Source: a virus
Taxonomy: Duplodnaviria > Heunggongvirae > Uroviricota > Caudoviricetes
Direction: 5' to 3' (one strand)
Length of the DNA stretch: 42,710 nucleotides
Virus record (IMG/VR): IMGVR_UViG_2667528074_000004
Span: 1-42,710 of that record
Both the position numbers and the translations under genes were made by a program. Positions 4,210-42,710 of this stretch are shown here, one piece after another. The notes beneath the pieces were generated by a model, which was not told where the DNA came from, ran no database searches, and was given only the letters and a program-made list of their open reading frames with translations. Positions within the stretch are counted from its first letter, which is position 1, and each line of letters begins with the position of its first letter.

Positions 4210-5191
4210 TATTCTGTTGCGCCTCTGTTCTTTGTTCCGCTGTTCTGGCGGCAATACATATTGAGTGCCATGAACCATTTGGCATCCATGATGATAATTC
4301 ATGCCGAACGGAGGTTAACTTATACCTTCCGCTTGCATGTGGTAGTTCTGTTTTGATATCCACATATCTTCCAATGCAAAGGAGAGATGAATATTGCGTC
4401 TGAAACATCAGTCCCCCATTTGAAAATACAGGATATCCAACAAGTCCGTATTCTCTGGATATAAACGGAATTACATCGTCTCTGTTTTTTTCTGAAGGCC
4501 AGAACTCTACTTTTGTCGGTGGCGTAGCTGACATCGCCAGTCCATAATCTGAACAGACCCTATAAAGTTGCTCAAAAACACTTCCTTCAAAATGCGGACT
4601 TCCTGATGTTGTCATCCCTTTTACATTATTAAACACAGCTTCATAACCTGCACTTGCACAAATGGATGAGATGACATCTTCAACACTTTGCGCCCCCTGC
4701 GCTGTAAACGGGCTTGCTGGCATGTTCTGTAAATCAACATTAGAAGAGGCTGTTATCATCAGACTGCTTTCAGGAGCAGAATTCATGTTTGCTATTGATG
4801 AAAGCATCGTGCCGGAGAAAACAAGAGAATCATCAGCAAATACCTCAACATTTAACTTCTGACCTTCCCCAACAATACCATCAGCCTTCCCTGATATATC
4901 AGCAAGTCTTTCGATTCCTAACCCGTAAAGAGATATATCAGCCTGAGCACCTCCCCGACCGGTAACAAAGTTCAGGGATACTGTTGACTTAACATTTCTG
5001 ATGGAGATTTTATTGTTCCCATTTTTATCAAATGCTGATGATTCATTCGTGAAGTCAAACCGAAGACTGTGATTTTTATACAAGCTCGTTTTCCTCGATG
5101 TAATACAGCAAGTAACGGCTACCCAAACCTTCCCATCGCGGGTCCGATTCCCCATCATTATCAATGAAAATAAGGTCTCCCTTAAATCCAA
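4202..5191 (-). CDS. Baseplate/tail protein (Mu gp44-like); start uncertain
   Basis: 329-aa ORF; its 5-prime end overlaps ORF 5076-5378 so the true start may be internal. Confidence 0.45.
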   Translation of the reverse strand: MDLRETLFSLIMMGNRTRDGKVWVAVTCCITSRKTSLYKNHSLRFDFTNESSAFDKNGNNKISIRNVKSTVSLNFVTGRGGAQADISLYGLGIERLADISGKADGIVGEGQKLNVEVFADDSLVFSGTMLSSIANMNSAPESSLMITASSNVDLQNMPASPFTAQGAQSVEDVISSICASAGYEAVFNNVKGMTTSGSPHFEGSVFEQLYRVCSDYGLAMSATPPTKVEFWPSEKNRDDVIPFISREYGLVGYPVFSNGGLMFQTQYSSLLCIGRYVDIKTELPHASGRYKLTSVRHELSSWMPNGSWHSICIAARTAEQRTEAQQNNG

Positions 5192-5378
5192 GGTAGGAAT
5201 ATCTTACCATCTTATTCCCATGCAGACATGGAACGCCCTGCATAATTGGGACTTCATTAACAGTTAAATCCATGTACATAAAACTCTGTCGCTGAACAAG
5301 TTTTATATTACATTGCTGACCAGCCAGACTTACCGAAATGGACTGAGATTTGCTGGGAAGAACAGATACTGTAATCAT
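5076..5378 (-). CDS. Hypothetical tail protein
   Basis: 100-aa ORF packed between tail genes, 4-nt overlap with upstream gene. Confidence 0.35.
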   Translation of the reverse strand: MITVSVLPSKSQSISVSLAGQQCNIKLVQRQSFMYMDLTVNEVPIMQGVPCLHGNKMVRYSYLGFKGDLIFIDNDGESDPRWEGLGSRYLLYYIEENELV

Positions 5379-6190
5379 GTACTCGCCTTAACTATATTTT
5401 TTGCAATATCTGCCGCTTTTTTTGTTGCGCTGTTTGTGACTTCGAGTATTGGTTTGGATACCGTATCAAGAGCACTCTGGAATTCAGTCTTGATTGTGTC
5501 GGAGATTTTTCCAGTGATTTCGCCAACAGATGACTTCAGTGATGACCATGATTTACTTAGCTCATCGACAGTAGATTCCCTGGCTCCGCCATTGGTTATT
5601 TGCGGATCAACTCCTACATCTCCCTGTGACTTATTGTTATCCGTTGGCTTCTGTTCTGACTGAGATCCAGAGAGGATAACCTCCATTTGCTGAATGACCT
5701 CCTGAAAATCAAGATAAACCGTCAGAAGAGTCACCCCCTTTTGAGAGTTAACTTCGTAATAGTGGTCAACAAGGTCGAAACTCTCCAGAGTTTCCTTTGG
5801 CGTTTCAATATCGTATGTTTTTGCAGAGGACAGCATCGTTTTGATTGTGTTCAGCGTGCTGTTCTGGCTTGTGAATGTGAGATCGAAAATATTCGGGATG
5901 TTGCCGGAAAAACCAGTAAGACCATTTACGATGATTGCACATCTTACTCTGGCTGGTTCTTTAACTTTGTTGATGGACTGGTATTTCCCTTTCTCCACCG
6001 GAGCGTTTGTTATTTGCGCCCTTCCGCTTGGCTGTACGGATGCCATACCACTGAACTCAAGAGCAACCTCGCCAGTTTCCCTGTCACGAATCACATACTG
6101 AGGATGCAGAACGCTGTCGATGATCGAAAGCGGAGAGCCACCACCGATAGCATTGAATATGTCTGCTGTGTTTAAATCGATTATGCCCAT
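5375..6190 (-). CDS. Tail/baseplate structural protein
   Basis: 271-aa ORF at the position of Mu gp43 (N) relative to tape measure. Confidence 0.4.
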   Translation of the reverse strand: MGIIDLNTADIFNAIGGGSPLSIIDSVLHPQYVIRDRETGEVALEFSGMASVQPSGRAQITNAPVEKGKYQSINKVKEPARVRCAIIVNGLTGFSGNIPNIFDLTFTSQNSTLNTIKTMLSSAKTYDIETPKETLESFDLVDHYYEVNSQKGVTLLTVYLDFQEVIQQMEVILSGSQSEQKPTDNNKSQGDVGVDPQITNGGARESTVDELSKSWSSLKSSVGEITGKISDTIKTEFQSALDTVSKPILEVTNSATKKAADIAKNIVKAST

Positions 6191-6202
6191 CTACTCTCCA
6201 TT

Positions 6203-6228
6203 AAACAAAAAACCCACCTGACGGTGGG
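6203..6228 (-). terminator. Rho-independent terminator after the 355-aa moron
   Basis: On minus strand: stem CCCACC, loop GTCA, stem GGTGGG, followed by TTTTTTGTTT (plus-strand aacaaaaaacccacctgacggtgggtt). Confidence 0.6.
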
Positions 6229-6234
6229 TTACTG

Positions 6235-7242
6235 TTACTTGTCTGAATCATCCAGTTCGTCTGTTTTCACATCCTCAAACCTTGGATGCAGGCGATTCAT
6301 TTTTGCAATAAAATCTGAATAGTCGTTAGATAGCTTCATAATCGTAACGGTTGATGACAGATGCTCTCTTAATTTTTGATATCCAATATTTGGCGTCAGC
6401 CCCTGAAACAACTTTGTACCTTTTGAAGCCTTTACGTTCTGCTTTTTAAGCTCCTCAAGGATGTTTGGTGCCAATCGCTTGTAGACGATATCATTTGTCA
6501 AAACGCCAAAATACTGAGGCCGGAAGCGGGGATTTTCCGGCGGGTATTCAAAGCCCCTTAACCTGAAAAGCTCTTCATAATAATCAGCCGGAAATGTTGT
6601 AATATAAGGTTGAATTTCCTTTGCGACAAAGGCCTCGAGTATTTTGGCGAGCGCATCTTTTTCTCTATCTCGCTGGTACCCCGTCGCTTCATCAACAAGC
6701 GCTATTATTCCGACTTTAGCTAATGAGCGCACCAGAATTTCAGCTTTTTTGGCTGTCTCTAACTGGTTTGGCCTGGTGATAGCGCCTGCCTCTCTTGCCT
6801 TTAAATAAACATCGCAAACAAGAGGTATTATGGATGCGTCATAACCTTCTTGGACGGAGCCAGTAATCGTCTTGTATTTGACCTTATTGATCACATCCAT
6901 AACATCTTGATTTATATATTTTTTAAGGTTTGCAGCATCCATAAAAGCGGGCATATTGATCACCCCCTCTTCTTGAGGTGCTCTACCCCCTCTTTGTGGT
7001 CGGCCAAATGCTTTAAAAACAGAAGCTTGTGATATGATACGCCGTCCATTTTCGAGAACCGCGACATCTAATTCCGCATCACCGATCTTTAACTTTCCCT
7101 CATTCGCAGATACGGGCAATAAAGCTTTTTCTTTTTTTGCGGCAACAGCCTTTCTTGAGGATTCTTTTCTTTGCTCTGCTGTCATTTTTGCGGCGCGTGC
7201 CTTACCGCCTTTAGCCTTCCCACTAACATCATCATTTTTCAT
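6235..7242 (-). CDS. Hypothetical protein, Lys/Ala-rich basic N-terminus plus conserved C-terminal domain (possibly P63C-like); moron inside tail operon
   Basis: ORF-track ORF 6235-7302; I place the start at ATG 7242 (MKNDDVSGKAKGGKARAAK...) but 7248 or 7302 are possible; followed by own terminator. Confidence 0.5.
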   Translation of the reverse strand: MKNDDVSGKAKGGKARAAKMTAEQRKESSRKAVAAKKEKALLPVSANEGKLKIGDAELDVAVLENGRRIISQASVFKAFGRPQRGGRAPQEEGVINMPAFMDAANLKKYINQDVMDVINKVKYKTITGSVQEGYDASIIPLVCDVYLKAREAGAITRPNQLETAKKAEILVRSLAKVGIIALVDEATGYQRDREKDALAKILEAFVAKEIQPYITTFPADYYEELFRLRGFEYPPENPRFRPQYFGVLTNDIVYKRLAPNILEELKKQNVKASKGTKLFQGLTPNIGYQKLREHLSSTVTIMKLSNDYSDFIAKMNRLHPRFEDVKTDELDDSDK

Positions 7243-7283
7243 GAGCATATCTCGTGTTGTGATTGATAAGTCAATCATACACA

Positions 7284-7301
7284 TGCACGTTATAGCGTGC
7301 A
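7284..7301. promoter_or_regulatory. Perfect palindrome TGCACG-ttatag-CGTGCA in divergent intergenic region (candidate operator)
   Basis: Read directly; a second copy of ATGCACGT lies at 7312-7319. Confidence 0.3.
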
Positions 7302-7453
7302 ATATTTAAATATGCACGTAAATTGCGAATCAGATAATGAGGAGACTTTCTCCCCCTTGCACTGACATCATGGTATCCTGCGCAAAACTAACCGCTGCGT
7401 GCTTTTGCTTCAGTTAACGGATACAAACAGAGGAAAATTTACAAGGGGAAAGA

Positions 7454-7912
7454 ATGAAATCCAGATTTTTCACAATAGCAATATTTTCTTCCGTTCTTCT
7501 ATCACTCGCAGCTTATGCTGCATCCGACAAAGATAAGGAAAAAATGATGTCTTTAATAAAAGATGCTTCTCCTTATGTTGCAGGCATGGGTAAAAGCATT
7601 GATGAAGTTTGTCAGGATATGGCTAACGACATGGTAAAAAAGTATGGAAATCAACTTAGTGCTATTGGCAAGTCACCGTCAGATATACGAGATTCATCGT
7701 ATGGTATATGCTTTGACGCTGCATCTTCAGCATCATTATCGCAATCCATAGAAGAAGTAAGCATGTGGAAAAATGCAGCAATGCAAAACATTAACGCCAC
7801 ATTCCGAGGCGAGAATGAGCAATCTCCCGCACGAAAATTTCTCGTTGAGACAATTGATCACTCTGAGAAAATGGCAAAAACAATTGCATTCATGCGGGAA
7901 ATTAGTCAATAG
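7454..7912 (+). CDS. Secreted/periplasmic protein of unknown function (signal peptide); opposite-strand moron
   Basis: 152-aa ORF; N-terminus MKSRFFTIAIFSSVLLSLAAYAASDK has the n-h-c pattern of a Sec signal peptide with AYA-A cleavage site; SD aaggggaaag upstream; AT-rich; only plus-strand gene inside the minus-strand tail module. Confidence 0.6.
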   Translation: MKSRFFTIAIFSSVLLSLAAYAASDKDKEKMMSLIKDASPYVAGMGKSIDEVCQDMANDMVKKYGNQLSAIGKSPSDIRDSSYGICFDAASSASLSQSIEEVSMWKNAAMQNINATFRGENEQSPARKFLVETIDHSEKMAKTIAFMREISQ

Positions 7913-7920
7913 CAAATCTG

Positions 7921-9696
7921 CTAAGGCACTGCACTTGAAAATGCCTGATTTACTGATGATCTGCGATTCAACTCCTTAAATCCTTCGGTTAGTTTTGAGG
8001 ATTGATCCGTTTTGGCAATTACCTTTACCTCTCCTATGTGCTGGCTGTTGTAATTGTTAACAACGCTCTGGGCATAGGATTGGTTTGCAGATCCATTAGC
8101 CAATCTTTGCTGGGTTTGGTAGTACGCGGCATTGCTATTTTTCGTTGGGTTACCATAATCAAGACCCCGCTTCCAATCTGGATAACCTTCATGCCTAGCC
8201 ATATAGGCGCTAAGTTTTGCCATAACCTCTGGATCTGAGAGGTTTAGCTTATCATTGGCACCAACGCCCATAGACTTAGAAACCTGGTCAATATACGCCT
8301 TTGTGTTGTTTTCTGAGGATGGTGCCCACTTGCTTATTATCCCTTGCAATGTATCAAGCTTATCTCTTTTGTAGTATAGAGTCAGTTGATTCCTAGCGGC
8401 CTCCCAGCCCTCTTCTGGGTCGAAGTATTGAGCAAATCCGTCCTTGTCTCTTCTTCTGTTTCCAGTAGCTTTAAGATTTAATGGGTTATTGTTTCTGTCA
8501 GGCCTGTTGACACCATTTTTGTTAGGAGGAATCTCTTTATTTGGATCGTCATAATCCATCCCAATGAGCCTTTCCAGCCAATGCTGCTGAAATGCGAATG
8601 GCCGCATCTCATCAGGAACATCTTTATACTGGTCTTGTACCATCTGCCCAAAAATACCAACAGCCCCGATTAATCCCAGCTTGCTTCCTAACCCTTTGCC
8701 GCTAAGAAGAGCCATGGCAGCAAGAATGCCCAATGCGTTTCCAGCGCCACCAACGGCTTTAACAAAACCATCAATACCTGTACTCAGGTTCCTGAAGAAC
8801 CCAACAATGTCACCCTTGTTGTTTTTCAGCCACTCTAAAAACTCCTGTTCTGCTTTAAGCACTTCAGGGCCAAATGTAGCCATTAATTCTTGTTTAACCT
8901 GAGCAAATTGCGAGTCAAGGGCTTTAGTCGTAGCAAGAATATTACGCTGTGCTTCTTCCTGCTCTTTGGTCATCTGCCATCGTTTTTCTTCCTCAGATAC
9001 CATCTGCACAGCTTTTCCGCTTTTAATATCCCCGGCAAGGTTAGGGTCATAACCAAAAGCAGAAAGCACTTGCATTAACTGTTTCTCGTTATGGTTCTTC
9101 CCATATTTCTGAAATTCCGCCAGAGCATCTTCTGATTTACCTCCAAGCTTACTAATATCAATGCCTGTTCTCGCTCCAGTTGTTAGTAAATTCTGAGCCT
9201 CCGGTGTAAGTCCGCCGAAAATTGTTGGGTCTTCTATATTGGCAAGCGCCATCCTGGCGCTCATCTGTGCCCCAAGGAACGCGCCGCCGTTCTGACCAAT
9301 TCGGGAGAATCCATACTGAGTACCAAGAACGTTACTGGCGCTTGTTCCAAGCATTCTCCCCATATTACTGGCTCTTACAATTGACTCCGAAGTACTTTCA
9401 AATGCACGATGAATGCCAATGGCTACGGCAGTCAACACACCGCCAACAGCCACAAAGCGTGTCGAAAGCCCCAAAAAACCATTAAATGAAGCAGTCAACC
9501 CTTTCATTGCAACAGCAGCTTTGTCGGTCTCCTTAGCCGTTTTGGACATCGAGGAGGTTGTTGACCTTTCTATCGCAGATGAAGATCTCTCTATTTCGTT
9601 TTTAAGGTCTTGTGCTTCCTGCTTTACTTTCCGTTTTCCATTCAGGAATTCATCGGCCTTAATTGTGACCTTGTAGGCCAACTCATTGATAATCAT
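7921..9696 (-). CDS. Tail tape measure protein
   Basis: 591-aa ORF directly downstream of the chaperone pair; position and size. Confidence 0.55.
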   Translation of the reverse strand: MIINELAYKVTIKADEFLNGKRKVKQEAQDLKNEIERSSSAIERSTTSSMSKTAKETDKAAVAMKGLTASFNGFLGLSTRFVAVGGVLTAVAIGIHRAFESTSESIVRASNMGRMLGTSASNVLGTQYGFSRIGQNGGAFLGAQMSARMALANIEDPTIFGGLTPEAQNLLTTGARTGIDISKLGGKSEDALAEFQKYGKNHNEKQLMQVLSAFGYDPNLAGDIKSGKAVQMVSEEEKRWQMTKEQEEAQRNILATTKALDSQFAQVKQELMATFGPEVLKAEQEFLEWLKNNKGDIVGFFRNLSTGIDGFVKAVGGAGNALGILAAMALLSGKGLGSKLGLIGAVGIFGQMVQDQYKDVPDEMRPFAFQQHWLERLIGMDYDDPNKEIPPNKNGVNRPDRNNNPLNLKATGNRRRDKDGFAQYFDPEEGWEAARNQLTLYYKRDKLDTLQGIISKWAPSSENNTKAYIDQVSKSMGVGANDKLNLSDPEVMAKLSAYMARHEGYPDWKRGLDYGNPTKNSNAAYYQTQQRLANGSANQSYAQSVVNNYNSQHIGEVKVIAKTDQSSKLTEGFKELNRRSSVNQAFSSAVP

Positions 9697-9911
9697 CGCT
9701 GCTCCTGATGTTTATTCCAGACCCGCTTGTTAAATGATTCCACCGAGATAATTTCCAGAAGGTTATACAGATCACGAACAGATAACCTTTCCTGCAAATC
9801 GGTATAAGTGGCTTTTCCTGAACAGATAATGGCGTTCATTGATGGTGTGACGTTTACGGGGCTAACGAGTTTTGCCGGAAGAGTCTCCTCCTCCATGAAC
9901 GGGTACTTCAC
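9693..9911 (-). CDS. Frameshift extension (GT-like) of tail assembly chaperone
   Basis: 72-aa ORF in the -1 frame relative to 9908-10315, no convincing own start (track start is GTG); reached by -1 slip at 9926-9932. Confidence 0.5.
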   Translation of the reverse strand: MKYPFMEEETLPAKLVSPVNVTPSMNAIICSGKATYTDLQERLSVRDLYNLLEIISVESFNKRVWNKHQEQR

Positions 9912-24765: not shown

Positions 24766-25254
24766 CTATGCTATATGTTTAATTTTCTCTACACGTTTCC
24801 GGTTTTTAAACGCACTATCCAGAACCGGGTAAATCATAAACAACGAGGCATTGATGATTTCGTCAACTTCCCGTCGACAGGTTGCGAGCGATGGTTTTTG
24901 AATGCGCCCGCCGCCCCGGCATAACATCTTGCGAGGTCTTGCGACGCGATGATAGTAAGATGCAATGGCGTGCTTGGAAGAGCCGTGGGCGTAGTAGCTG
25001 AGGAGGATGCCAAAGGCTTTCTTGTCAATGTACATGACGGAATCGACGACCTGAGAAATCAACATTCCATCATCATCATTACACATTGGCCTTGTCATAA
25101 CTCTTCCCGGCTCTACGCTCTCCATGAACTTAGCTATTACGCTGCTCATGCGCTTTTCCAGACGACCTGAATAAACCCATGCGCCCCACAGTTCAAGCCA
25201 GCCATTCAGCCAATCGTGCTGTTCTTTGGTGAGGTTTAGCTCTCTTATGCTCAT
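24766..25254 (-). CDS. Q: Late-gene antiterminator Q (Q21-type)
   Basis: 162-aa ORF at the canonical position between nin genes and lysis cassette; size matches the short phage-21 Q class. Confidence 0.7.
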   Translation of the reverse strand: MSIRELNLTKEQHDWLNGWLELWGAWVYSGRLEKRMSSVIAKFMESVEPGRVMTRPMCNDDDGMLISQVVDSVMYIDKKAFGILLSYYAHGSSKHAIASYYHRVARPRKMLCRGGGRIQKPSLATCRREVDEIINASLFMIYPVLDSAFKNRKRVEKIKHIA

Positions 25255-30785: not shown

Positions 30786-31064
30786 TCAGGCCTCGAAGAA
30801 TTCGCCGTTCTTCGGGGCTTTTTCTTTTGTCAGCATTCTGGCTACTTGCTTAGCCAGTTCCGCCAACTCCTCGTCTTCAACACCCCATTCCAGCACAGCC
30901 AGAAGCATGGCCATCTTTGGGATAAAGCTGTCTTTCCATCGCGAAATTTGCGATTCATTAATCCCTAACGCGTCGGCAACCTTTCGCTGACCACGTACAG
31001 CAATTCGATTCAGGATGTTGCTTGTAATTGCATTCGCTTTCTTGCGAGTACTTGTAAGTTGCAT
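30786..31064 (-). CDS. cII: Transcriptional activator CII (P22 c1-like allele)
   Basis: Start MQLTSTRKK... within CATATG; conserved core SQISRWK...IPK...[10 protein letters not shown] shared with lambda CII. Confidence 0.8.
31042..31055 (+). promoter_or_regulatory. PRE-like CII-binding site (TTGC-N6-TTGT) overlapping cII 5-prime end
   Basis: TTGCgagtacTTGT located at the same spacing from CATATG as the lambda PRE TTGC-N6-TTGC repeats. Confidence 0.4.
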
Positions 31065-31143
31065 ATGTAAGTATTTCCTTAGATAACAATTGATTGAATG
31101 TATGCAAATAAATGCATACACCATAGGTGTGGTTTAATTTGAT

Positions 31144-31175
31144 GCCCTTTTTCAGGGCTGGAATGTGTAAGAGCG
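31144..31175 (-). promoter_or_regulatory. nutR (boxA CGCTCTTAC at 31167-31175, boxB GCCCTGAAAAAGGGC at 31144-31158)
   Basis: Matches lambda nutR as recalled. Confidence 0.85.
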
Positions 31176-31182
31176 GGGTTAT

Positions 31183-31392
<210 letters not shown>

Positions 31393-31407
31393 TTAGTACA
31401 TGCAACC

Positions 31408-31477
31408 ATTATCACCGCCAGAGGTAAAATAGTCAACACGCACGGTGTTAGATATTTATCCCTTGCGGTGATAGATT
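31408..31477. promoter_or_regulatory. Right operator/promoter region: OR1 31410-31426, OR2 31434-31450, OR3 31457-31473; PR on minus strand, PRM on plus strand
   Basis: TATCACCGCCAGAGGTA, CAACACGCACGGTGTTA, TATCCCTTGCGGTGATA read directly; PR -10 attatc (31408-31413) and -35 agtcaa (31431-31436) on minus; PRM -35 tagata and -10 tagatt on plus; cI mRNA leaderless. Confidence 0.9.
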
Positions 31478-31480
31478 TAA

Positions 31481-32197
<717 letters not shown>

Positions 32198-39748: not shown

Positions 39749-40438
39749 ATGACTACTTTTACCGACAAAGAACTGATTAAAGAAATCAAAGAGCGTATCA
39801 GCAGCCTGGACGTTCGAGACAATATTGAACGCCGGGCTTATGAAATTGCACTGGCATCGCTGGAAGCAGATCCAGTTGCTTATATTTTCAAACATCCGGC
39901 CGGGAAATTATTCTGGGCTTTAACGGATGAAAGCAATAAAGAGCAACCGGACGTTATTCCTGTTTATGCTGCCGCGCCTGCGTCGGTTGTGCCGGATAAT
40001 GCATCAGAGCCTCTTGCTTATGCTTACAAAGAGCTTACGCCTGAGATTATGCGCAACCAGGCTGCCGAATCCAATCGCGGTAATGAGTGGACCGGCAATC
40101 CTGATATTGATAACGCCATCATCATGCTCGACCGCATAGATACGCTGGAAAATTGCGATGATGACCGTATTGAGGCTGTTAAGGCTGTTTTGCGTAGACT
40201 GGCTGGCAACTCTCCGGTAACTCCGGATGGTTGGATAAGCTGTAGTGAGCGAATGCCGGATAGCAAAACAGCCGTTCTTGTTGCCAGGGAGTTTGACAGG
40301 AAAGGTGACTGGCGAATGAAATGGGCGACTTACATCCCGGGGCATCCTGACGCTAATGATGGGTGGATAATTCCAGGTGCGTCGTGGATACCATCACACT
40401 GGATGCCGCTACCAGAACCGCCGCAGGAGGCGAAATGA
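39749..40438 (+). CDS. Hypothetical protein with DUF551-like C-terminal domain
   Basis: 229-aa ORF; C-terminus DGWISCSERMPDS...W...W resembles DUF551 of enterobacterial prophages. Confidence 0.45.
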   Translation: MTTFTDKELIKEIKERISSLDVRDNIERRAYEIALASLEADPVAYIFKHPAGKLFWALTDESNKEQPDVIPVYAAAPASVVPDNASEPLAYAYKELTPEIMRNQAAESNRGNEWTGNPDIDNAIIMLDRIDTLENCDDDRIEAVKAVLRRLAGNSPVTPDGWISCSERMPDSKTAVLVAREFDRKGDWRMKWATYIPGHPDANDGWIIPGASWIPSHWMPLPEPPQEAK

Positions 40439-41414: not shown

Positions 41415-41428
41415 TTGCGTGTAATTGC
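41415..41428 (+). promoter_or_regulatory. PI promoter CII-binding site TTGC-N6-TTGC
   Basis: TTGCgtgtaaTTGC immediately upstream of xis, as in lambda. Confidence 0.7.
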
Positions 41429-41440
41429 GGAGACTTTGCG

Positions 41441-41659
41441 ATGTACTTGACTCTTCAGGAGTGGAACGCACGCCAGCGGCGCCCAAGAAGCCTTGAAACA
41501 GTTCGTCGATGGGTACGCGAGTGCAGGATATTCCCTCCTCCGGTTAAAGATGGAAGAGAGTATCTGTTCCACGAATCAGCGGTAAAGGTTGACTTAAATC
41601 GACCAATAACAGGTAGCCTTTTGAAGAGGATCAGAAATGGGAAGAAGGCGAAGTCATGA
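41441..41659 (+). CDS. xis: Excisionase Xis (lambda-type)
   Basis: 72-aa ORF MYLTLQEWNARQRRPRSLETVRRWVRECRIFPPPVKDGREYLFHESAVKVDLNRPIT... matches lambda Xis as recalled. Confidence 0.9.
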   Translation: MYLTLQEWNARQRRPRSLETVRRWVRECRIFPPPVKDGREYLFHESAVKVDLNRPITGSLLKRIRNGKKAKS

Positions 41660-42710
41660 GCGCCGGGATTTACCCCCTAACCTTTATGTAAGAAACAATG
41701 GATATTACTGCTACAGGGACCCAAGGACGGGTAAAGAGTTTGGTTTAGGCCGAGACAGGAGGATAGCAATCACTGAAGCAATACAGGCCAATATTGAGTT
41801 ACTCTCAGACAGCGGACGCAAATCACTAATAGACAGAATTAAAGGCGGTGACGCAATCACTCTTCATGTGTGGCTTGACCGATATGAAAGAATCCTCACC
41901 GAAAGGGGGATCAGGCCGAAAACTCTACTCGACTACGCCAGCAAAATCAGGGCAATCCGAAGAAAATTGCCGGACAAACCGCTCACTGACATATCAACGA
42001 AAGAAGTGGCAGCAATGCTAAACACCTACGTAGCAGAAGGTAAAGCAGCTTCCGCAAAATTAATCAGGTCAACCCTTGTTGACGTTTTTCGTGAAGCAAT
42101 AGCCGAGGGGCATGTGGCAACGAATCCGGTAACAGCAACCCGTACAGCAAAGTCAGAAGTAAGGCGCTCAAGGCTGACAGCTAATGAGTATGTCGAGATT
42201 TACCATGCAGCCGAACCTCTCCCTATCTGGCTAAGGCTGGCGATGGATTTGGCCGTCGTTACAGGGCAGAGAGTCGGCGATTTGTGCAGAATGAAATGGT
42301 CAGACATAAACGACAACCATCTTCACATTGAACAGAGTAAAACAGGGGCTAAACTCGCCATTCCGCTAACGCTAACGATTGACGCGCTCAATATCTCATT
42401 GGCTGATACACTACAGAAATGCAGGGAGGCCAGCAGCAGTGAAACTATAATCGCATCAAAGCATCACGATCCGCTTTCCCCGAAAACAGTATCAAAGTAT
42501 TTTACAAAGGCGAGAAATGCATCTGGACTCTCATTTGATGGAAACCCGCCAACATTCCATGAACTGCGTAGCCTGTCAGCGAGGCTATACCGGAACCAGA
42601 TTGGCGATAAGTTTGCTCAACGTCTTCTCGGACATAAATCAGATTCAATGGCGGCGCGGTATAGGGACAGCCGTGGACGGGAATGGGACAAAATTGAAAT
42701 CGACAAATGA
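41637..42710 (+). CDS. int: Tyrosine integrase Int (lambda-type)
   Basis: 357-aa ORF MGRRRSHERRDLPPNLY...; catalytic region ...HELRSLSARLY... near C-terminus; overlaps xis 3-prime end as in lambda. Confidence 0.95.
   Translation: MGRRRSHERRDLPPNLYVRNNGYYCYRDPRTGKEFGLGRDRRIAITEAIQANIELLSDSGRKSLIDRIKGGDAITLHVWLDRYERILTERGIRPKTLLDYASKIRAIRRKLPDKPLTDISTKEVAAMLNTYVAEGKAASAKLIRSTLVDVFREAIAEGHVATNPVTATRTAKSEVRRSRLTANEYVEIYHAAEPLPIWLRLAMDLAVVTGQRVGDLCRMKWSDINDNHLHIEQSKTGAKLAIPLTLTIDALNISLADTLQKCREASSSETIIASKHHDPLSPKTVSKYFTKARNASGLSFDGNPPTFHELRSLSARLYRNQIGDKFAQRLLGHKSDSMAARYRDSRGREWDKIEIDK

Follow-up and report, generated by a model that had tools for sequence, protein, structure and literature searches.

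The gene at 7454–7912 and its product

The window analyzed here, the whole 42,710-nucleotide stretch of IMG/VR record IMGVR_UViG_2667528074_000004 (Caudoviricetes), holds a prophage in which one short gene lies antisense within the tail operon. This gene, hereafter the focal gene, occupies 7454–7912 on the plus strand and encodes 152 amino acids (aa) from an ATG start. A Shine–Dalgarno sequence, AAGGGGA, is located at 7443–7449 on the same strand and ends 5 nt before the start codon, and an AAGGA/AAGGG motif is kept across the leaders of its relatives. A first-pass annotation of the window had described a lone plus-strand gene with its own Shine–Dalgarno sequence and an AT-rich composition, and these points are borne out. 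Within the first ~24 kb, the focal gene is the sole plus-strand open reading frame (ORF) of 90 aa or more lying outside any longer minus-strand ORF, and its GC content of 0.375–0.40, against 0.42–0.49 in the flanks, makes it modestly AT-rich. The AT skew changes sign at the gene, and the skews flip relative to the flanks. The homology search suggested by the annotation returned homologues at 44–99% identity in six genera, comprising E. coli, Citrobacter, Enterobacter, Salmonella, Cronobacter, and Yersinia. Comparison of these homologues gave a synonymous divergence (pS) of 0.73–0.88, at which synonymous sites are saturated, versus a nonsynonymous divergence (pN) of 0.11–0.33, and the frame is therefore under purifying selection. 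The refuting outcome named in the first pass, an ORF not conserved as coding, did not occur, and the focal gene is a real, conserved gene.

The encoded protein begins with a predicted Sec signal peptide of the signal-peptidase-I type (codons 1–22, 7454–7519, plus strand; MKSRFFTIAIFSSVLLSLAAYA), with cleavage predicted between AYA and AS, so that the mature chain would begin with ASDK. The n-region charges are K2 and R4, the h-region is FFTIAIFSSVLLSLAA (best 10-residue Kyte–Doolittle mean, 2.3), and Ala occupies positions −3 and −1. The assignment is rule-based and supported by conservation: all 26 of 26 aligned homologues carry a signal peptide of 20–23 aa with one or two positive charges and small residues at −3/−1, in agreement with the Sec signal peptide and AXA site of the first-pass annotation. 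This segment is the fastest-diverging part of the gene, with a pN of 0.36–0.47 versus 0.11–0.32 in the mature part. A transmembrane-like stretch is absent from the mature part (best 19-residue hydropathy mean, 0.49), and no lipobox ([LVI][ASTVI][GAS]C) was found in the protein, which has no Cys in residues 1–30; a Cys within the h-region occurs in just two homologues and is not conserved. The mature protein (7520–7912, plus strand, stop codon included) comprises 130 aa, is acidic (pI 5.2), and contains six predicted helices together with Cys53 and Cys86, which are invariant in the core family alignment. An AlphaFold2 model built on the family alignment (pLDDT 87, pTM 0.79) is all-helical, with six helices, and residues 1–19 are disordered (pLDDT <50). 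The mature part is thus confidently predicted to be an all-helical domain of ~14 kDa, in which Cys53 and Cys86 probably form a disulfide. By sequence rules, the product is predicted to be a soluble, Sec-exported, periplasmic protein.

Searches with the protein against Pfam (E≤1), PHROG, NCBIfam, and PADLOC gave zero matches, and a profile search of the PDB returned noise only, with no solved or viral fold matched. A tblastn search of 50,697 phage records (INPHARED) found no match, and a scan of GTDB representative genomes yielded one tape-measure locus only and no homologue of the focal protein. The family is small, with 29 clusters at 90% identity among 5.8 billion proteins and nine clusters at 50% identity in a profile search of 1.84 billion representatives, and the allele of the window is present in 1 of 5,426 complete E. 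coli genomes. The accessions of the protein are mentioned in no paper found. Judged by these comparisons, it is a new, uncharacterised protein family.

The slot beside the tape-measure gene

The convergent right neighbor of the focal gene encodes the tape-measure/lytic tail protein (7921–9696, minus strand, 591 aa; PHROG 873, 2013, and 2276). The two stop codons are 8 bp apart in the window and abut or overlap in relatives. In every related locus examined the focal family is convergent with the tape-measure gene, and it has been seen solely in the slot adjoining that gene. To survey this slot, 76 IMG/VR loci were fetched by tape-measure alignment, and the first gene 3' of the tape-measure gene was taken as the slot gene. 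Across 70 related loci, the slot holds 59 distinct proteins belonging to at least 18 unrelated families. A crude rule for signal peptides and lipoboxes flags 47 of the 59 (80%), compared with 15 of 548 (2.7%) late-operon control ORFs of at least 110 aa. Most of the unflagged slot proteins are visibly exported or are two-helix membrane proteins, and approximately three families are not envelope proteins, namely an Arc-like gene, the hub gene itself, and a transposase-like ORF. The cassette can also be missing: in locus L069 the tape-measure and baseplate hub genes are directly adjacent, and the family-4 loci lack it as well. On these comparisons, the focal gene behaves as a separate accessory cassette, antisense in the tail operon, that occupies an exchangeable slot. 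Of the marks of a moron in the Juhala/Hendrix sense, it shows a position between genes that adjoin each other in a related phage (L069), a GC content below that of the flanks, and a likely promoter of its own; no terminator of its own was found.

The alternative cassettes (L010:5531-5989, L020:2781-3254, L012:3155-3715; L022-L097) encode unrelated signal-peptide proteins, lipoproteins, or two-helix membrane proteins, and they gave zero matches in Pfam and PHROG. The family of the focal gene is denoted as family A, and family C is an unrelated slot family (E. coli KCJ3K291). The two are joined in a natural A–C fusion, P0035, whose C-terminal portion shares 39% identity with family C (E=3e-29). 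Fusion proteins of 241–287 aa include P0035 and P0036 and occur at L056, L063, L071, and L073. At L021 (GCA_028620695.1), the tape-measure gene and a convergent A–C fusion gene adjoin a P4-like primase (Zn_Ribbon_Prim/Toprim/DUF927) with no further tail genes nearby, and this pair may be kept by a prophage remnant or satellite.

The tape-measure protein carries a muralytic "W-type" domain (8122–8571, minus strand; approximately aa 376–525; PHROG 7182, "tail injection transglycosylase"), which matches the PDB chains 7q47 "Endolysin" (E=5e-11) and 9vvp Gp29. Its pI of 8.7 contrasts with that of the acidic focal protein. The window and the SC407 prophage (L010) are 96–100% identical over 5375–9911 save for two separate patches. 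In the first (7400–7946), the SC407 prophage has an unrelated 152-aa signal-peptide gene in place of the focal gene; in the second (8187–8620), which covers tape-measure residues ~360–503, nucleotide identity is 56–71%. About 240 bp of 96–100% identity separates the two. Near-isogenic pairs of loci, defined by at least 95% identity over tape-measure residues 1–320, were then classified by cassette and lysin domain. Both are the same in 65 pairs, and an unrelated cassette accompanies a diverged lysin domain in 62. An unrelated cassette is combined with the same lysin domain in 20 pairs, and a diverged but related cassette with the same domain in five and with a diverged domain in one; the same cassette with a diverged domain occurs in none. 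This distribution is no more than suggestive of a coupling between the cassette and the lysin domain.

The leader and the flanking genes

Upstream of the focal gene lies a tetrad-repeat box, CTGCGTGCTTTTGC (7395–7408, plus strand), which corresponds to TTGC-N6-TTGC with one mismatch. Thirteen nucleotides separate the box from the −10-like hexamer TACAAA (7422–7427, plus strand), and a further 26 nt lead to the ATG. L022, L030, L031, and L094, the closest relatives, have the exact box TTGCGTGCTTTTGC, and in most relatives the hexamer reads TAGAAT, TATAAT, or CATAAT. Approximately 60 bp upstream of the ATG are common to otherwise unrelated convergent cassettes, including those of families A, B, C, 3, 5, and 11 and the fusions, and a GC-rich (terminator) hairpin often lies 5' of this shared leader in the relatives. 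The consensus consists of TTGCGTGTTTTTGC, 13 nt, TAGAAT, and then ~25 nt to the start codon. Among 39 distinct leaders of convergent slot genes, 31 contain the box with at most one mismatch, 18 of them exactly, and in 28 of these 31 a −10-like hexamer follows 13 nt downstream and ends 23–36 nt (mostly 24–27) before the start codon. In control upstream regions, the box with at most one mismatch is found in 27 of 829 (3.3%) and the exact box in 2 of 829. Slot genes co-oriented with the tape-measure gene have the box in 0 of 25 cases. In 15 loci (L039-L044, L055-L058, L064-L067, L072, L076), the slot is occupied by a protein of 66–93 aa with two predicted membrane helices, encoded in the tape-measure orientation and without the CII box; on both counts its expression would be expected together with the late genes.

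TTGC-N6-TTGC is the recognition sequence that CII binds at PRE, PI, and PaQ (PMC4651098), and the window contains both the activator and these sites. The cII gene is located at 30786–31064 on the minus strand (PF05269 Phage_CII, E=3.4e-42), and its product is presumed to be the trans-activator of the slot promoter. The three lambda-type sites, each read with the hexamer that follows after N13, are pRE (31042–31055, TTGCGAGTACTTGT, AAGTAT), paQ antisense inside Q (24929–24942, TTGCGAGGTCTTGC, TAAGAT), and pI before the lambda-like xis (41415–41428, TTGCGTGTAATTGC, TGTACT). The window pRE corresponds to that of the HK544 record, in which a 14-nt CII site is annotated, with the −35 inside the N6 and the −10 starting 13 nt past the box. 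By its sequence features, the leader of the focal gene thus probably belongs, with one mismatch, to the CII-dependent promoter class. The nearest precedent for such a placement is phage epsilon34, in which CII sites have been proposed upstream of gtrA and the gtr conversion genes (PMC2629481).

Other readings of the leader were also considered. TTGCGT was dropped as its −35 because the spacer would be 21 nt, and direct repeats of the OmpR/PhoB and ArcA types had been considered before the CII box was recognized through the pI site of the window itself. A fourth exact TTGC-N6-TTGC at 39933–39946 (minus strand) is followed 13 nt on by AGCCCA, which is no −10-like hexamer, and is probably a chance occurrence. 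A scan of 7303–7453 found no sigma-70 consensus promoter, an Rfam search of the leader identified no family, and RNAalifold on 15 leaders revealed no conserved RNA structure. Downstream of the ORF, no convincing terminator was found; the search gave a single weak hairpin at 8192–8209, fewer than chance would predict. CII is active during the establishment of lysogeny and not in the stable lysogen, and the expression in lysogens assumed by the first-pass annotation is therefore left unsupported by a leader of CII-dependent layout in which no sigma-70 consensus promoter was found.

The prophage as a whole is a hybrid, in which a lambda-type early region with CI, Cro, CII, Q, Xis, and Int is combined with E217-like myovirus late genes (DUF3383 sheath, E217_Gp32 tube, tail assembly chaperone, Dit-like hub, Pam3 plug, and baseplate J). 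The lambda-type parts lie at 24766–25254, 30786–32197, and 41441–42710, versus the myovirus head and tail genes at 1–21000. The immunity region (cI, cro, and cII) is 98.4% identical to that of HK544, where cII is annotated, and the lysis genes are ~15 kb from the focal gene.

On its left, the focal gene is flanked by a divergent gene for a P63C-domain, antirepressor-like protein (6235–7302, minus strand; 98.7% identity to 933W L0095), whose true start is probably an ATG near 7242–7248. It occupies the place of the Arc/Mnt-Ant (immI-like) module found in most relatives, where an Arc/Mnt-like gene usually diverges from a small ORF and an antirepressor (P22_AR, Bro-N, or pRha). This left neighbor is mosaic across loci, being Arc/Mnt, Ant, Bro-N, pRha, or P63C, and four loci with 99–100% identical focal proteins have four different left neighbors. 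The P63C gene and leader (6205–7391) are 98.7% identical to a nin-region module of the Stx phages 933W (L0095) and BP-4795, and sequence comparison identifies this module as a recent exchange between unrelated phage types. The mosaic junction GGTATCCTGCGCAAAACTAA (7372–7391, plus strand) marks where the homology to the 933W module stops and the slot leader starts. These 20 nt, GGTATCCTGCGCAAAACTAA, recur with one change right upstream of P22 sieA (L098 ~4843-4862), and on the opposite strand they read as the Shine–Dalgarno sequence and ATG of a divergent gene; they may represent a recombination linker shared between morons. In the P22 record, gene 16 meets a convergent sieA, followed by orf59a and mnt in the same direction as sieA, and then by arc, ant, and 9 in the opposite direction, with sieA having its own promoter past the mnt terminator. 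Since the gene plan is the same, the focal gene lies in the sieA-equivalent position of an "ant moron", a term taken from PMC2629481.

Proposed role and comparison with known systems

The reading that we favor, tentatively and with slightly less than even confidence, is that the focal protein is a CII-timed periplasmic factor acting on incoming phage tails, that is, a superinfection exclusion protein. In this mechanism, a CII-dependent type of promoter would initiate transcription ~20 nt 5' of the ATG, and the protein would be made as CII accumulates after infection, while the cell commits to lysogeny. Once in the periplasm, it would act on the tips of further incoming phage tails, either inhibiting the muralytic domain at the C-terminus of the tape-measure protein or blocking its passage. 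This would bring about superinfection exclusion and, at a high multiplicity of infection, would shield the cell from damage by tail lysins. In lambda, high multiplicity raises CII, and the same condition means that many tails attack one cell. We infer CII activation, the timing of expression, and the molecular target of the protein from sequence. A fuller version appears doubtful to us: a fourth class of CII promoter would drive an exchangeable periplasmic or membrane cassette, and the focal protein would be a new tail-lysin inhibitor that is made only during commitment, protects against further injections and lysis from without, and co-evolves with the muralytic domain.

Several observations weigh against this proposal. 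The box of the window has a mismatch (CTGC as the first tetrad), its −10 hexamer TACAAA lacks the final T, and the slot promoter may accordingly be weak or dead in the window. Since the closest relatives have TTGC, the class assignment rests on the family, and the window copy may be a weakened one. One-mismatch boxes number 70 in the window versus 62 expected, which alone is not significant. The focal protein resembles no known exclusion protein in sequence or fold, and strict CII dependence would leave little of it in a stable lysogen, unlike classical prophage exclusion. As for the lysin domain, the near-isogenic pairs, including the 20 with an unrelated cassette and an unchanged domain, amount to approximately five independent groups, and the joint change could follow from physical linkage. 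Moreover, the Yersinia loci L006 (SLT-type domain) and L007 (W-type domain) carry an identical family A protein, which rules out a strict match between the family of a cassette and the type of its neighboring lysin domain.

The first-pass annotation had read the gene as a candidate lysogenic-conversion factor, citing lambda Bor and Lom as precedents. What stands of this view is an exported accessory protein with its own control region; a lysogen factor resembling Bor or Lom it is probably not, and a host-virulence role is likewise unsupported. More generally, we consider it unlikely that the protein is a conversion or host-fitness factor that aids the bacterium from the periplasm, for example, in serum resistance, adhesion, or stress tolerance, and does not act on phages. 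Such a role would fit an exported, prophage-borne product whose gene is slightly AT-rich, as many morons are, and the CII sites proposed upstream of the gtr conversion genes of epsilon34 (PMC2629481) lend it some weight. Set against these features are the absence of a lipobox and a beta-barrel and the lack of homology to Bor, Lom, Ail, or any Pfam/NCBIfam family. Furthermore, the family is tiny and confined to the tape-measure slot, where unrelated envelope proteins alternate in near-identical phages, a pattern typical of conflict between phages, and its hosts include environmental Yersinia and water isolates. The focal protein is therefore more likely to block incoming phages than to serve as a virulence factor. 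Improbable as well is a mainly RNA product, in which CII-activated antisense transcripts entering the tape-measure gene from its 3' end would damp the late (tail) genes during lysogenisation, as paQ does for Q, with the ORF as a passenger or of secondary importance. The CII-promoter layout of the leader, the convergent arrangement in which the stop codons lie 8 bp apart or the genes overlap in relatives, and the lack of a convincing terminator past the ORF all accord with it. Nevertheless, the slot ORFs are under strong purifying selection, their products are nearly always envelope-targeted, which a role of the RNA alone leaves unexplained, and a paQ-like site is present in Q of this phage already. 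The antisense RNA and the protein roles are not mutually exclusive.

Two further explanations receive still less credence. The protein could be a periplasmic modulator of the lysis–lysogeny decision or of the host envelope, for instance, one acting on the periplasmic face of FtsH-HflKC to stabilize CII in a positive feedback, which we regard as very unlikely. Its expression would be tied to CII, and FtsH-HflKC governs CII stability (PMC1838920); against this, the idea is pure conjecture, the protein shows no similarity to CIII or any known partner, and the many unrelated proteins of the slot are hard to square with one conserved host target. The least probable explanation is that of a lytic-cycle helper, either a periplasmic lysis regulator or an aid to assembly or injection for the phage's own tail. 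The focal gene does adjoin the gene of a virion protein with a muralytic domain, and one group of slot genes, family 1, reads in the direction of the late operon. The focal gene itself, however, is antisense to that operon and lies past terminator hairpins in relatives, the distance to the lysis genes is considerable, and the cassette is dispensable, as the loci that lack it demonstrate.

Prophage accessory envelope proteins that act against other phages are known, and they are usually thought to be constitutive in lysogens and have been found singly. What is new here is one bounded slot whose unrelated families mostly encode envelope proteins, approximately seven of which share a leader of CII layout; no paper containing both "CII-dependent promoter" and "superinfection exclusion" was found. 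The value of the observation rests on the slot and the CII-type promoter, not on the single focal ORF. If the control by CII is true, the CII regulon would reach beyond its three classic promoters (pRE, pI, and paQ), and exclusion would fall in the vulnerable interval that precedes repressor immunity. The slot would then also supply a catalogue of candidate envelope proteins against phages, with the tail lysin domain as their probable target. Otherwise, the focal gene would be an ordinary uncharacterised prophage accessory gene.

Comparison with characterized systems places the focal gene at some distance from Bor and Lom, with which it shares the status of a prophage envelope protein that is no part of the core genes. 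Whereas Bor belongs to the lipoproteins and Lom to the outer-membrane beta-barrels, the focal protein lacks a lipobox, has an all-helical model, and matches neither family, including Pfam Ail_Lom at E≤1. Its promoter resembles lambda pRE, pI, and paQ in the TTGC-N6-TTGC box straddling the −35, the 13-nt spacing, and a weak −10, and the phage of the window has CII and all three sites. It differs in that it would form a fourth class serving an envelope cassette inside the tail operon, and the window copy departs in its first tetrad and its −10.

With P22 SieA, the likeness is one of position: convergent with the last injection or tape-measure gene and beside an Arc/Mnt-Ant (immI) module in the late operon, with the caveat that the window has the P63C gene instead of Arc/Ant genes. 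Like sieA, the focal gene probably has its own promoter downstream of a terminator, and in both cases several unrelated sequence types occur at the position (PMC10883804). Phages escape the injection block imposed by SieA through mutations in the C-termini of the ejection proteins (PMC10883804). The differences are substantial, since SieA is a multi-pass inner-membrane protein, whereas the focal protein is predicted to be soluble and periplasmic with no transmembrane segment; BLASTP of SieA against all slot proteins showed no similarity (best E=1.9); the P22 sieA leader lacks the TTGC-N6-TTGC box; and P22 is a podovirus with ejection proteins, whereas the phage of the window is a myovirus with a tape-measure protein. 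HK97 gp15, a moron product encoded beside the tape-measure gene that blocks DNA entry (PMC3594210), and TP-J34 Ltp, which acts on the tape-measure protein and likewise blocks DNA entry (PMC3952083), are also accessory envelope proteins linked by location or action to the tape measure. The focal protein is homologous neither to gp15, which is small and located in the inner membrane, nor to Ltp, which is a lipoprotein, and both of these are made from the prophage.

In the periplasm, T4 Spackle (gp61.3), a disulfide-containing helical bundle, inhibits the tail-associated gp5 lysozyme of the incoming phage (PMC7677548). It differs from the focal protein in sequence and fold, with no match in either, and in the size of the mature protein (75 aa versus 130 aa), and the coupling of the focal family to lysin type is not strict, as L006 and L007 illustrate. 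The two are alike as small periplasmic helical bundles with a cleaved signal peptide and a cysteine pair, features that are predicted for the focal protein. Spackle is made soon after infection and not from a stable prophage, as is proposed here, and the gene neighboring the focal gene encodes a tail muralytic domain that tends to change with the cassette. By analogy, P22 sieA, T4 Spackle, and HK97 gp15 thus appear to be closer precedents for the focal gene than Bor and Lom.

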